Translations under genes and position numbers: made by a program
In this document: positions 2,350-56,017 of the stretch, piece by piece
Numbering within the stretch: the stretch's first letter is position 1
Layout of the letters: every line of letters begins with the position of its first letter
Sequence record: MN445185.1
Origin: Escherichia phage vB_EcoM_EC001
Strand: one strand, 5' to 3'
Length of the DNA: 64,000 nt
Notes under the pieces: model-generated
What the model was told of the DNA's origin: nothing
Database searches by the model: none
What the model saw: the letters and a program-made list of their open reading frames with translations, nothing else

Positions 2350-2865
2350 GTGAGCATGATAGCATCAGTTTTCAAACTGCTTCCATTCTTACAGATGCTG
2401 TGGGAAGCATTTAAACCGGGCGAGGGGGAGAAAGTAACACGAGCCGGGAAGATAGTGACACTAGTGATAGTGGCACTGGTCGCGTTCTCTGCATTTGTCT
2501 CATATGCCTATATTGTTCAATACCACACACTGGTTAGCGTCCAATCGCGTACTCAGTATCTGGAGATATCCTATAAGGAGCTAAAAGAGAAGTCCGATCA
2601 TGGCGAAGTGGAGAACAATAAGCTGTACGATCGTCTCTTCACATGCCTGGGTTCTCGATCGCCATATGATGGTACCAAATCTCCAACAGGGACAGGCACT
2701 GGGGCCGCGGTTCCGCCTGAAGAACTCAAGCCGGTAACACCACAGGCACCGTTAAATCCGTCTAGCCCGCCTGCCAAGAAACACCAGGCGGCTTCTCGCC
2801 CAGTGGGGTCGCAGGCGGCAAACGATTTCCGACAGGAGATTATCAAGACGCTTAATAATCCATGA
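2350..2865 (+). CDS. membrane-anchored protein (one TM helix, coiled-coil-like segment, Pro-rich C-terminus); possible i-spanin
   Basis: Hydrophobic segment KIVTLVIVALVAFSAFVSYAYIV; GTG at 2350 or ATG at 2356; SD-like site upstream; function is inference. Confidence 0.5.
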   Translation: MSMIASVFKLLPFLQMLWEAFKPGEGEKVTRAGKIVTLVIVALVAFSAFVSYAYIVQYHTLVSVQSRTQYLEISYKELKEKSDHGEVENNKLYDRLFTCLGSRSPYDGTKSPTGTGTGAAVPPEELKPVTPQAPLNPSSPPAKKHQAASRPVGSQAANDFRQEIIKTLNNP

Positions 2866-2874
2866 GGAGCATAC

Positions 2875-3354
2875 ATGAAGTTATTTTTGGTGGCGATACT
2901 GGTGCTATTGTTGACAGGATGCCCTGGGGTCATCCGTCACGTAGACCCAGATTACTCCTCAACCGGAGATTGGCCTTTTCGTCCTTTAGAACACCCACCA
3001 GTATATAACGGTGGGAACAGTCCTGAGGCGAAAAAGCTGGCAGGGAAAATGTTTGTTGCGGATGTGAACGCTTATGCTTATTACGTTTATCTGTACGCTA
3101 AGTCAGTAAACAACTATGCAGAAGCTAAAGGGTGGCACACCCCGATGACCGCACCGCTTTGTGAAGAGTTTATTCGCCCCACTCTTCATGGTATACCCTC
3201 CGGGATATATCTCGACCCTGGTTCTCGTAGCCCTCAAGACATTAGTCGTGATTTGTCACGACAGATTAAGTCTCTCATTCGCAGCTATCGCGAAGACAGA
3301 GAGTCTTTTAATCGTGCCTACGAACGGCACAAAAGTAGTTGCCTTGTGCAATGA
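2875..3354 (+). CDS. lipoprotein (159 aa); possible o-spanin or superinfection-exclusion lipoprotein
   Basis: N-terminus MKLFLVAILVLLLTGC is a signal peptide with lipobox L-T-G-C; GAGGAG SD 8 nt upstream. Confidence 0.6.
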   Translation: MKLFLVAILVLLLTGCPGVIRHVDPDYSSTGDWPFRPLEHPPVYNGGNSPEAKKLAGKMFVADVNAYAYYVYLYAKSVNNYAEAKGWHTPMTAPLCEEFIRPTLHGIPSGIYLDPGSRSPQDISRDLSRQIKSLIRSYREDRESFNRAYERHKSSCLVQ

Positions 3355-3358
3355 AAAC

Positions 3359-3397
3359 TCCCTCTTACCTTCGGGTAAGAGGGGATTTCCTTTTTTA
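3359..3397 (+). terminator. rho-independent terminator
   Basis: Stem TCCCTCTTACC/GGTAAGAGGGGA with TTCG loop followed by T-tract. Confidence 0.75.
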
Positions 3398-53503: not shown

Positions 53504-56017
53504 ATGGAGAACTGGCTGGTCGCTCACGCCGTTAAAAATGCGTGGCAGCGTCCGTACCTCGATGGGGTGTTGAACATTGCGCCTTTTCGATTAACTGAAA
53601 AGACCGGAGCGATCGGGTTTTTCAAGCACGGGCGTAATCCGATTCCTTTACCGGGCGAGGGGTGGTGGCACGCGTTTGTAATTGACAAGCTCCACCTCAA
53701 CTACGGCAACTTGAGTATCCCTCCTGAGCGCTGGAAGAAACTTACTACGTGTGTAAATAACTTCCATGCGTGGATGCAGGTGTACAACGAAGATGGGACA
53801 ATTATCCCGTCGAACTCTGTGTATTTCTGGCGGACACTCTCTGGTCAGATTTACATGGCGATTCCGCAAACGGAACGCTACAAGTGGTTAGACGACACAC
53901 CATGTTATCTACGCATTTATGCCGGTAATGATGGCGGCGAAAACGCTCCTGTTGTTAAACCGACATTCATCGAACCGTATAATCCGCCGAACCCACAACA
54001 GATCCAGATCGTCTTAGACCGTTATAATCTGTTGAAAGGCCAGAAAATCGGCTATGTCGATTTCTGGGTAAACGGAAAGATGATTGCTAATCCTAAGCCC
54101 GCGGATATCAAAGCATGGGATGATGTTGAAATTCGTGTCGACGGCCGCATTCGTCGTGTAATTGAATACCGTTGTGGGGATTTGCAAACGTTCTACTCAA
54201 CGCTTGACCAAACACGAAAATACCTGCTGCACATTCCAAAAGGGGATGGCATTTGGATTTTCAACAACGACTGTGAAATTCAGTTGTTGTGGAAAGGCGA
54301 AGGGCGTTACTACCACCGCCACCGTCATCAGGCCGTGCGTCAATTGACGTGGAACGATATATCGATTCCGTCGATGCGGATTTCGAAATACCGCACCGCT
54401 TTCACTAACCCAATGAATGATATCGACGAACTAACGATTCGTTTATTGATACGTGACGATTTCCTTGACCTGAAGCCACTGTATAACTCCACCCACACGC
54501 ACGACCTCTATCGTCTTAGTGACGAGCAGATCATCGGTGCGATGGTGGGGGCAAACTCCAACGTACCAGAGTGGACCGCAGCAGCGCTCGAGGAATCGGC
54601 AGCGAATCGGTTAGCGGCAGCCAAACTCCGGAACATCACACGCGATCTCTGCACTGATGCGTACGGCTACAATGCCGCCGCACGTTACAGTGCCGACACT
54701 CCACAGCGTCTGGAACTTACATCCGGTGGCTATCGCGGTACCTTGCCCGACTTACTGGCAACGCTGTCAACTGTATACGAGTACGATGCCGATGGGTTGC
54801 TGTTAGAACATCACCGTAATGCAGGCTACGATGTTTACATCCCTCGCAATCCAGAAGCACGAATCATCGAGGCTATTGCGGGTGAAGTCTCGGATGCGGT
54901 GAAGATTGTTGACAACGCTCCTGACTTTGAAATTGAGCCAGGTTCAAACGTTGGGCTGTGGATTCGAATGGTCATCGGGGAAGTTCCAACCAACGACTAC
55001 TACAAAGCCGAGGAAGGAACGGATTATACTCGCGACGGAAATAAAATCACCTGGACCGTAGATCGGACACGACGTCACCCGACAGTGATTTACGACGACT
55101 TCCATCTGTTCTTCGAAGTGGATGTTAAGGTGTCGGAAGGCCAGATACGTATTCCGATTGTAGCACGCAACCAAGACGGGCAGCAGCGCACGCTGTGGCT
55201 ACCGATGGAAACGGTTGAAGTATGGTTGAACAACCACCCACTGGTGCACGGTATCGATTACCACACCCGCTGGCCGGAAATTGTGGTGGTTTGTAAAGCG
55301 TGGATGGCGGACGGGGATACAAATAAAGTCTCGGTGCGTTGTCGTGGTGTGACCGGTGAACTCCGTATTCCTAAACATGGTTTCGTGTCAAGCGGACTGC
55401 TGTCTAATAACAGCCAGTTTGATTGCCGTGACGACAAAGTGATTCGTGTCGTGGGTGGCGGTTCACTGCTATTGCGTGACGAAGTCGTGTTCCGTGAAGA
55501 CAACACTGTAGGTGTTGACATCGTGCAAGACGGGTTCCCATACTCGGTCGACGATCCGACTATTCCGTTGCGGACGCTGGTAAGCGGCGATACGTACGAC
55601 TTGCGCGACACTGCCCGTGATTTGGACACACGCGTCGAGGCTTACCTGTCTAACTGGTTCCCGACACCTCCGCCGGTTAACCCGGTACCGTTGCCGTATC
55701 TGTATCACCTCTATTCGCCAACCCTGAACAAAATCTTGTGGGACTACTTGCAAGGTATTCTGATTCTGCGGGAAGACGATCCAGAGTATCGTATCTCGAC
55801 GTCACAGCTGGATGACATCATGGAGCGTTATAAAGACCTCCTCCCGTTTGACCCGGCCTACATCGGTTACGATAAAGCGTTTGTGAAACTGCATCCGCAC
55901 GTGAAGTACGAAACGGTAGAAATCAACGAACTTGGCTTTGCCTTCTTAGACCGCGTCAATGAACGTTATCTGAATGGCGAAGTGCAGCTTAATCAGTATC
56001 TGATAATCAAGGGTTAA
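53504..56017 (+). CDS. hypothetical large protein (837 aa), possibly virion-associated
   Basis: Long ORF in the block upstream of the terminase. Confidence 0.6.
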   Translation: MENWLVAHAVKNAWQRPYLDGVLNIAPFRLTEKTGAIGFFKHGRNPIPLPGEGWWHAFVIDKLHLNYGNLSIPPERWKKLTTCVNNFHAWMQVYNEDGTIIPSNSVYFWRTLSGQIYMAIPQTERYKWLDDTPCYLRIYAGNDGGENAPVVKPTFIEPYNPPNPQQIQIVLDRYNLLKGQKIGYVDFWVNGKMIANPKPADIKAWDDVEIRVDGRIRRVIEYRCGDLQTFYSTLDQTRKYLLHIPKGDGIWIFNNDCEIQLLWKGEGRYYHRHRHQAVRQLTWNDISIPSMRISKYRTAFTNPMNDIDELTIRLLIRDDFLDLKPLYNSTHTHDLYRLSDEQIIGAMVGANSNVPEWTAAALEESAANRLAAAKLRNITRDLCTDAYGYNAAARYSADTPQRLELTSGGYRGTLPDLLATLSTVYEYDADGLLLEHHRNAGYDVYIPRNPEARIIEAIAGEVSDAVKIVDNAPDFEIEPGSNVGLWIRMVIGEVPTNDYYKAEEGTDYTRDGNKITWTVDRTRRHPTVIYDDFHLFFEVDVKVSEGQIRIPIVARNQDGQQRTLWLPMETVEVWLNNHPLVHGIDYHTRWPEIVVVCKAWMADGDTNKVSVRCRGVTGELRIPKHGFVSSGLLSNNSQFDCRDDKVIRVVGGGSLLLRDEVVFREDNTVGVDIVQDGFPYSVDDPTIPLRTLVSGDTYDLRDTARDLDTRVEAYLSNWFPTPPPVNPVPLPYLYHLYSPTLNKILWDYLQGILILREDDPEYRISTSQLDDIMERYKDLLPFDPAYIGYDKAFVKLHPHVKYETVEINELGFAFLDRVNERYLNGEVQLNQYLIIKG

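Follow-up and report, generated by a model that had tools for sequence, protein, structure and literature searches.

Near the start of a 64,000 nt stretch of Escherichia phage vB_EcoM_EC001 (sequence record MN445185.1; the whole of this stretch is referred to as the window), a gene for a membrane-anchored protein is followed directly by a gene for a lipoprotein. The question raised by this locus is what such a pair does in the cell envelope, for which a preliminary description had offered either a spanin pair or a receptor-masking system. Over its first 8 kb the window matches two phiKZ-related members of the genus Seoulvirus, the Salmonella jumbo phages JN03 (98.8 %) and SPN3US (97.7 %), and window position 1 has its counterpart at about 177,623 of SPN3US. 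Both open reading frames (ORFs) of the preliminary description were found where it had placed them and correspond to SPN3US gp204 (protein A, 2356–2865) and gp205 (protein B, 2875–3354); these and all features of the pair described below are on the + strand. The two proteins are labelled 'hypothetical protein' throughout the inspected records and fall into phrog_8719 and phrog_8165, respectively, both of unknown function. Neither has a Pfam family, and a literature search for SPN3US gp204/gp205 or phiKZ gp156 found no mention of them.

Comparison with other jumbo phages indicated that gp204 and gp205 represent, in the SPN3US clade, an envelope module of two proteins that occurs across the Chimalliviridae, the nucleus-forming jumbo phages. 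Service as the spanin of SPN3US-like phages is tentatively the single likeliest role for this pair, at well below an even chance, and the non-spanin envelope roles, when summed, are more likely.

Topology and predicted structure of the two proteins

Protein A is a bitopic inner-membrane protein of 169 aa with 100 % identity to its JN03 counterpart and 95.9 % to that of SPN3US, and it matches phrog_8719 at E=3.6e-73. Its frame is open from a GTG at 2350, giving 171 aa, but the likely start is the ATG at 2356, because a Shine–Dalgarno-like GAGG (2347–2350, from direct reading of the sequence) lies 5 nt upstream, the JN03 annotation uses this start and the alignment then begins at position 1 of the PHROG profile. 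The SPN3US annotation of gp204 begins 13 codons further downstream (equivalent to window position 2395) and so cuts off a conserved N-terminal motif. This motif forms a hydrophobic/amphipathic helix at residues 2–18 (2359–2409; IASVFKLLPFLQMLWEAF), modelled by AlphaFold2 as helices 2–7 and 9–18, which would lie on the cytoplasmic side. The one transmembrane (TM) helix that had been described earlier was located at residues ~31–56 (2446–2523; Kyte–Doolittle 19-residue window mean of 2.46). In the AlphaFold2 model, which was obtained from a fused A–B chain with a paired alignment, residues 29–100 form one unbroken helix consisting of the TM segment and ~44 periplasmic residues, with a predicted local distance difference test score (pLDDT) of ~90. 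The periplasmic part (residues 57–100, 2524–2655, pLDDT ~90) is coiled-coil-like and ends at a conserved Cys97 that is invariant within the enterobacterial clade. It is followed by a Pro/Thr/Gly-rich flexible linker (residues 101–151, 2656–2808), recognized from its composition and a pLDDT below 50, whose length and sequence differ from phage to phage. The chain closes with a short conserved helix at residues 152–167 (2809–2856; ANDFRQEIIKTLNN; pLDDT 64–69), so the Pro-rich stretch reported in the preliminary description exists but is not the C-terminus. Equivalent terminal helices were seen elsewhere in the family, for example ..RRLNDLLK in phiKZ and ..ARLIDLIND in the metagenomic relative L046, and this helix is proposed as a docking site for protein B.

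The gene for protein B begins 9 nt after that of protein A, with a Shine–Dalgarno sequence GAGGAG (2864–2869, from direct reading) that overlaps the stop codon of A (TGA, 2863–2865) and lies 5 nt before the ATG at 2875; the 9 nt gap suggests that translation of the two genes may be coupled. Protein B is an outer-membrane lipoprotein of 159 aa that matches phrog_8165 at E=9.5e-60. Its signal peptide (residues 1–16, 2875–2922; MKLFLVAILVLLLTGC) ends in the lipobox L-T-G-C, which had also been recognized earlier and which passes lipoprotein-signal scans. The codon of the lipid-anchor Cys16 is at 2920–2922, and the residue at position +2 is Pro rather than Asp. No other ORF of the window passed a six-frame lipoprotein-signal scan. 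The mature protein starts with a Pro-rich unstructured tether of 33 residues (17–49, 2923–3021), for which AlphaFold2 gave no secondary structure and a dip in pLDDT to ~59–85, and continues into a folded domain (residues 50–154, 3022–3336) composed of a helix (50–84), a loop (85–119) that holds Cys96, Pro102 and Pro108, and a second helix (120–154). A further cysteine, Cys156 (3340–3342), is located just past the second helix. The mean pLDDT was 90.1 with an alignment of 74 sequences, and C96, P102, P108 and C156 are nearly invariant across these 74 family members; Cys96 is the probable disulfide partner of Cys156. Among 144 representatives of the B family with a signal sequence, 137 have a cysteine within the last 13 residues, and their signals comprise a canonical lipobox in 133, a [GS]C variant in 10 and a cysteine-less form in one (P0021). 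The two-gene unit is followed, 5 nt past the stop codon of B, by a strong hairpin with a T-run resembling an intrinsic terminator (3359–3394; hairpin at 3359–3384 with an 11 bp stem and 6 G-C pairs), a putative terminator that closes the unit.

Counterparts in phiKZ and distribution across the Chimalliviridae

The genes that flank the pair have orthologues in phiKZ, where gp157 corresponds to gp203 (1e-53) and the RNase H gp155 to gp207 (5e-35). The slot between gp157 and gp155 holds two genes, gp156.1 and gp156. The former encodes about 95–96 aa, in which an amphipathic N-terminus is followed by a single TM helix and then a charged tail, and the latter encodes a lipoprotein with the lipobox ISGC. 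Profile–profile alignment (hhalign) of the C-terminal domains of gp205 and gp156 gave a probability of 93.8 % and E=1.7e-7 over 63 columns, and gp156 matches the SPN3US-type phrog_8165 at 1.8e-6. Both share the pattern C-x2-[FY]-x-[LMI]-P ... amphipathic helix ... A-x7-C, in which Cys, Pro, Ala and Cys are invariant. When the 74 members of the B family were scanned, phrog_8165 was matched by 46 and phrog_15897, the phiKZ-type group, by 58, with at least 30 matching both. Judged from these alignments, the lipoprotein domains of gp205 and phiKZ gp156 are homologous. For gp204 and gp156.1 the alignment was weak (E=0.034; E=0.0016 and a probability of 16 % for the N-terminal 40 columns), so that homology is not statistically established by sequence. 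Orthology of the two is nevertheless suggested by a shared N-terminal motif (identified by eye), a common architecture, the same position and a homologous partner. The motif, hhKxLLP(F/L)L, is common to phiKZ gp156.1 and the A-type proteins of RSL2, Xoo-sp14, RAY and PCH45.

The same slot and architecture as in gp204/gp205 were found for phiKZ gp156.1/gp156 (phrog_14813/phrog_15897), PhiPA3 gp180/gp179 and 201phi2-1 gp242/gp241. Unlike gp204, the A proteins of these Pseudomonas phages have ~40 periplasmic residues and lack the Pro-rich linker; unlike gp205, their B proteins lack the first helix (VADVNAYAYYVYLYAKS...) and have a Thr/Ser-rich tether instead.

A word-indexed protein search with gp205 returned close relatives only, and an exhaustive profile search of 1.84 billion proteins yielded 274 cluster representatives of the B family at E≤1e-3. 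Chance ORFs were ruled out, as both frames are conserved to ~25–30 % identity across clades and have invariant Cys and Pro columns. Every one of the 72 phage records with an A or a B gene has both, side by side and always in this order; these records comprise Seoulvirus, Cronobacter CR5/Derbicusvirus and many jumbo phages of Erwinia, at identities down to ~28–33 %. The B gene stands directly after the A gene in 26 of 26 extracted pairs. Gene order around the pair is constant: a macro-domain gene, an SLT endolysin, two to four small genes, gp202 (DUF7194), gp203, A, B, an exonuclease and RNase H. Of these, gp202 and gp203 are on the opposite strand and virion-associated, gp203 being tail-associated. 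Across the Chimalliviridae, the slot is recognizable in 287 records by a gp203-like virion gene. The slot itself, from the opposite-strand gp157/gp203-like gene to RNase H, was also present in PhiPA3, 201phi2-1, Phabio, Noxifer, RSL2 and metagenomic contigs, and was kept in all five contigs of sufficient reach (L044, L046, L048, L049 and L050); L045 and L047 are too short to show its context. RSL2 carries both A and B at the slot once the start codons are corrected.

Protein A occurs on its own at the slot in RAY, SA002, EL, pTD1, Xoo-sp14 and PCH45. In these A-only phages the coiled coil of A is longer and the protein often has a Cys at its C-terminus, and no embedded or unannotated lipoprotein ORF was found beside A in RAY, EL, pTD1, SA002 or Xoo-sp14. 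In Xoo-sp14, gene 153 (L018 4001–4552) encodes an A-type protein of 183 aa with the N-terminal motif, a TM helix, a long coiled coil and a Pro-rich tail; it fills the whole slot from the virion gene to RNase H, with no lipoprotein ORF in any forward frame. Four jumbo-phage contigs from IMG/VR (L037–L040) still encode a gp204 homologue, and just downstream of it a B homologue that has an ordinary signal peptide without the lipobox Cys (L037 3004–3459, L039 2860–3318, and also in L038 and L040; protein P0021; cleavage region …VGLVSNGYG|EPG…), which would be a soluble periplasmic protein.

Spanin or another envelope function

As a spanin, the pair would work as follows. Protein A would sit in the inner membrane with its amphipathic helix in the cytoplasm, and its TM and ~44-residue periplasmic helix would lead through the ~50-residue Pro-rich linker to the C-terminal helix. 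Protein B, lipid-anchored to the outer membrane by Cys16, would hold out, on its ~33-residue Pro-rich tether, a helical hairpin domain in which two cysteines are conserved. Docking of the A terminal helix on the helical domain of B would create an inner-to-outer-membrane bridge through the peptidoglycan, as in the two-component spanin design, and these parts (a 44-residue helix, 50-residue linker and 16-residue helix on one side, and a 33-residue tether and hairpin on the other) could plausibly span the Gram-negative periplasm. Once the secreted transglycosylase gp198 had degraded the wall, the bridge may disrupt the outer membrane.

Several observations are consistent with this role. Gene order and topology fit a two-component spanin: gp204 has the topology by which i-spanins are recognized (Young/Kongari), with an N-terminal TM domain, type II orientation and a helix-dominated periplasmic domain, and gp205 is a lipobox lipoprotein encoded directly downstream with an outer-membrane sorting signal, there being no Asp at +2. 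The pair resembles lambda Rz/Rz1 and T4 PseT.3/PseT.2 in that a type II protein with a periplasmic helix, a hinge and a second helix is followed by a lipoprotein gene in the 'separated' architecture. Periplasmic cysteines are conserved in both A and B, by analogy with Rz/Rz1, which form disulfide-linked complexes. The pair is also the only spanin candidate in the SPN3US genome. When all 240,413 bp were scanned for lipoboxes in six frames, three annotated genes passed, gp205 among them, and gp204/gp205 is the only pair in which a TM protein is followed by a lipoprotein; tblastn searches of the genome gave no rival. The other two genes that passed are outside the window. One, gp159 (137623–138114, minus strand), encodes 163 aa with the lipobox LAGC and is a lone gene without a TM neighbour; the other, gp180 (165783–166184), encodes 133 aa with the lipobox LAAC and is followed by the signal-peptide proteins gp181 and gp182.

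The preliminary description had also noted that no holin or endolysin is adjacent. Within the window this is so, but only because of where the window begins: in the SPN3US clade, genes for a signal-peptide SLT endolysin and for a small holin-like protein with two TM segments precede the pair by 3–4 kb, both just left of window position 1. The transglycosylase endolysin gp198 (L003 3436–4158) is encoded ~4.2 kb upstream of the pair; at its N-terminus it carries a segment resembling a signal peptide or a signal-anchor-release segment (MFRTILFLLVAVTTFNSNAS...), unlike the soluble phiKZ endolysin gp144. The gene for gp200 (86 aa, L003 4806–5066), ~3.3 kb upstream of the pair, encodes two TM segments and has no PHROG match; its product is a candidate holin or pinholin. 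In this clade, the interval from gp198 and gp200 to the pair contains only small ORFs and two tail-associated genes on the opposite strand. A similar arrangement was seen in L046, where a signal-peptide SLT gene (1–885) is followed by a gene for an 84 aa protein with two TM segments (869–1123), and the pair is 2.7 kb downstream. Spanin genes that are unlinked to holin and endolysin and lie beside nucleic-acid enzymes have a precedent in T4 pseT.3/pseT.2.

Other results weigh against a spanin, some of them from phiKZ itself. The lysis cassette of that phage has been defined by experiment as gp141 (i-spanin), gp141.1 (o-spanin, 120 codons), gp142 (holin), gp143 (regulator) and gp144 (endolysin), with gp141/gp141.1 complementing lambda RzamRz1am, and with gp142 and gp143 sufficient for timed lysis in Escherichia coli (Manohar et al. 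2026, PMC12894885). No homologue of the spanins, holin or regulator of phiKZ was detected: tblastn of gp141, gp141.1, gp142 and gp143 against the whole SPN3US genome gave nothing below E=0.39, and hhalign against gp141/gp141.1 aligned the signal peptide alone for B and nothing for A. The gp141/gp141.1 pair follows the same two-gene logic as A and B in the same phage family, and its large o-spanin also has a helical C-terminal part. However, the gp141 and gp141.1 genes overlap within a cassette containing holin, regulator and endolysin, whereas gp204 and gp205 are 9 nt apart, and gp141.1 belongs to the o-spanin phrog_456 (1.6e-11), whereas gp205 matches no spanin PHROG. The phiKZ counterparts gp156.1/gp156 (66–70 Pseudomonas phage records) and the proven spanins gp141/gp141.1 (gp141.1 family in 69 records, all Pseudomonas phages) coexist across essentially the same set of records. 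In a phiKZ transposon screen gp141 and gp141.1 each received insertions at one site with 3 reads (PMC12676376). Insertions in these genes are therefore nearly absent, and gp156.1/gp156 do not substitute for them. Filtered insertions were zero in gp156 and gp156.1, as also in gp154, gp155 and gp157 (PMC12676376). The authors of the screen flagged polar effects, and orf157 could be deleted despite having no insertions (PMC12676376). When all reads were counted, orf156.1 had 4,631 reads at 6 sites (PMC12676376, Tables S2 and S3), probably including at least one abundant viable insertion at an extreme end of the gene. The essentiality of orf156.1/orf156 therefore remains apparent only.

The proteins themselves also depart from the spanin pattern. 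A has an extra conserved segment of ~28 residues ahead of the TM helix, atypical of an i-spanin, and to our knowledge such a conserved cytoplasmic N-terminal motif is not typical of spanins; in phiKZ, moreover, A has only ~40 periplasmic residues. Mature B, at 143 aa, has two 35-residue helices in a confidently folded domain and is Pro-rich only in its 33-residue tether, in contrast to the usual small, Pro-rich and unstructured o-spanin, a trait that is typical rather than strictly defining. The objection made earlier that 159 aa is too large for an o-spanin is weak, given the 120 codons of the validated phiKZ protein (PMC12894885), which offers an analogous precedent for a large helical o-spanin. 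Spanin partners are expected always to be encoded together, but inspection of the conserved slot found no B in the six A-only lineages, and B has lost its anchor in L037–L040. A spanin candidate separate from A was also found in PCH45. The conserved cytoplasmic helix of A, the B-less lineages and the folded helical hairpin of B all set the module apart from the lambda and T4 spanins, and gp204 and gp205 fall outside all spanin sequence families, unlike lambda Rz/Rz1.

Database searches showed the same. No spanin family was matched by gp204 or gp205 in Pfam and PHROG, and the matches of the 74 B members were confined to phrog_8165 and phrog_15897, two groups of unknown function, with no spanin PHROG or Pfam family among them. 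Weak matches to the 'Rz-like spanin' groups phrog_214/phrog_739 (E 3e-4 to 3e-3) were obtained for the A-only proteins RAY gp146 and SA002_136 and for no other A members. As a control, validated gp141 matched phrog_214 at only 5.3e-4 and nothing in Pfam, so the two A-only matches are as weak as its own. The missing spanin match for A is thus weak evidence, because a proven i-spanin itself barely matches. Both family profiles gave only signal-peptide or coiled-coil noise against the sequences of solved structures. The gp205 model had no match in a fold search of the PDB (best E=7) and, among viral models (BFVD), found family members only, with annotated o-spanins at E>2. The fused-chain AlphaFold2 model of A with B was weak (predicted template modelling score of 0.32) and carries no information on docking in either direction. 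The spanin pair of the preliminary description is therefore upheld in gene order and topology and is called into question by the coexisting phiKZ spanins, the A-only lineages, the anchor loss and the lack of a spanin family match.

Of the other roles considered, a lysis-timing module is unlikely but carries some weight. Here A would be a bitopic regulator or sensor and B an outer-membrane-tethered periplasmic partner, acting through holin triggering or lysis inhibition without disruption of the outer membrane. The T4 holin T has class III topology, with a cytoplasmic amphipathic N-terminus, one TM segment and a periplasmic C-terminal part, and the relationship of T with RI/RIII resembles that of A with B in this topology and in having a secreted or anchored periplasmic partner with cysteines. 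However, the periplasmic domain of T is globular whereas that of A is a helix and a disordered linker with no globular sensor domain, and no sequence or profile similarity to T, RI, RIII or any holin/antiholin family was found, scans of Pfam and PHROG with 15 A members and 74 B members giving no such match. A was present at the slot in every Chimalliviridae lineage examined, while B was absent from six and anchor-less in one; a conserved A and a dispensable B are what would be expected of a core membrane actor with an accessory regulator. The conserved N-terminal helix of A would be available to cytoplasmic partners, and coexistence with validated spanins in phiKZ suits a role in timing. In addition, at high multiplicity phiKZ lyses late, in a manner reminiscent of lysis inhibition, for which no periplasmic sensor has been identified, although gp142 and gp143 are already known and are enough for timed lysis (PMC12894885). 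The zero filtered insertions in gp156 and gp156.1 would also agree with a timing role but may reflect polarity on the downstream RNase H. A role centred on A is improbable. Under this explanation A would mimic or disrupt host divisome or envelope coiled-coil proteins of the FtsB/FtsL/DivIC kind, or connect phage structures inside the cell with the envelope, and B would be a clade-specific addition. The existence of A-only lineages, the conserved cytoplasmic motif and the bitopic coiled-coil architecture point this way, the last being reflected in sub-threshold Pfam matches to DivIC, ZapB, DivIVA, LapA and FtsH_ext. None of these matches, however, reaches the curated cut-off, and proteins composed of a TM segment and a coiled coil typically give matches of this kind; the strong conservation of B where it is present is also left unexplained. 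The FtsH_ext match, and one to TatC, had been dismissed as sub-threshold.

Superinfection exclusion has little probability as well. A periplasmic A–B complex that stops a second jumbo phage from injecting would be like T4 Imm/Sp in purpose and would differ from receptor masking; it is in keeping with the envelope location of A and B and with a module that stands apart from the validated phiKZ lysis genes, and conservation across hosts points more to a phage-intrinsic target, such as the machinery by which the phage itself injects, than to a host receptor. Exclusion genes, however, are usually dispensable and fast-evolving, whereas this slot is conserved in all lineages examined with no filtered insertions in gp156/gp156.1, and no similarity to any known exclusion protein was found. 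Receptor masking by gp205 in the manner of T5 Llp or Cor, with gp204 unrelated or merely co-transcribed, is very improbable. As an outer-membrane-targeted lipoprotein of a lytic phage gp205 is like T5 Llp and phi80 Cor, but gp205 alone of these has a fixed inner-membrane partner, with which it is paired in constant order at every locus examined. Phages of Salmonella, Erwinia, Cronobacter, Pseudomonas and Ralstonia all retain the C-terminal domain of B, and the receptors of these phages presumably differ. The match to T5 Llp (8a60_B, E=0.073) covers the signal peptide only, and fold searches returned no Llp-like structure. In SPN3US, gp159 and gp180 are better candidates than gp205 for a lone lipoprotein that acts in masking or exclusion. 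The receptor blocking proposed in the preliminary description thus finds no support, given the five host genera, the B-after-A order of the 26 pairs and the extent of the Llp match. Set beside the spanin role, the broader proposition that A and B are a Chimalliviridae-wide trans-envelope module, distinct from spanins and needed alongside them, falls a little short of an even chance; such a module would link cytoplasm to outer membrane for a purpose new to phages, examples being the sensing of secondary infection to delay lysis or the exclusion of competing jumbo phages.

Annotation of related loci and implications of the module

Deposited start codons for gp204, RSL2 ORF055 and ORF056, RAY gp146 and SA002_136 look to be placed too far downstream. 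As annotated, RSL2 ORF055 lacks the signal peptide and lipobox, which appear when the start is extended (MKKFTTGVLFVFLAAC...), and the deposited starts of RSL2 ORF056, RAY gp146 (L026) and SA002_136 (L030) drop the conserved N-terminal motif. In the window, hairpins at 280–305 and 3359–3384 have near-perfect 11 bp stems with a terminator score on both strands. The first lies after gp201 and before the convergent gp202 and the second after gp205, so that the opposite-strand gp202–gp203 and the A–B pair form a block bracketed by the two.

The additional spanin candidate of PCH45 is at 55185–55721 on the minus strand (L051 20186–20722), where a gene for a 178 aa protein with an N-terminal TM domain holds an unannotated out-of-frame ORF whose product would have a lipobox (..MMLIACLTMVSLVGC..) followed by a Pro-rich mature part; the two are a candidate embedded spanin of the Rz/Rz1 type. 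The A-type gene of PCH45 is at a separate locus beside RNase H (L052 4634–5158). A predicted 'Rz/spanin' gene, gp54, was essential in PCH45 in a transposon sequencing study, and the 178 aa gene is probably gp54, in a record that carries no gp numbers.

Four points were found in none of the literature searched: the existence of a Chimalliviridae-wide family, its phiKZ homologues gp156.1/gp156, its separation from the validated phiKZ spanins and its place as the sole spanin candidate of SPN3US. The definition of the phiKZ lysis cassette had left gp156.1/gp156 out of consideration. The pair is the only candidate for breach of the outer membrane by SPN3US-like phages, and SPN3US has an amber-mutant genetic system; the role is therefore directly testable in this phage. 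Whatever that role is, ~270 protein clusters labelled 'hypothetical' or 'lipoprotein' gain a testable annotation, and several deposited start codons need correction. If the pair is a spanin, it represents a new family unrelated in sequence to Rz/Rz1 or gp141/gp141.1, a new fold joins the spanin repertoire and phiKZ-like phages carry two unrelated spanin systems. If it is not, nucleus-forming phages encode a conserved and possibly essential bridge from the inner to the outer membrane.

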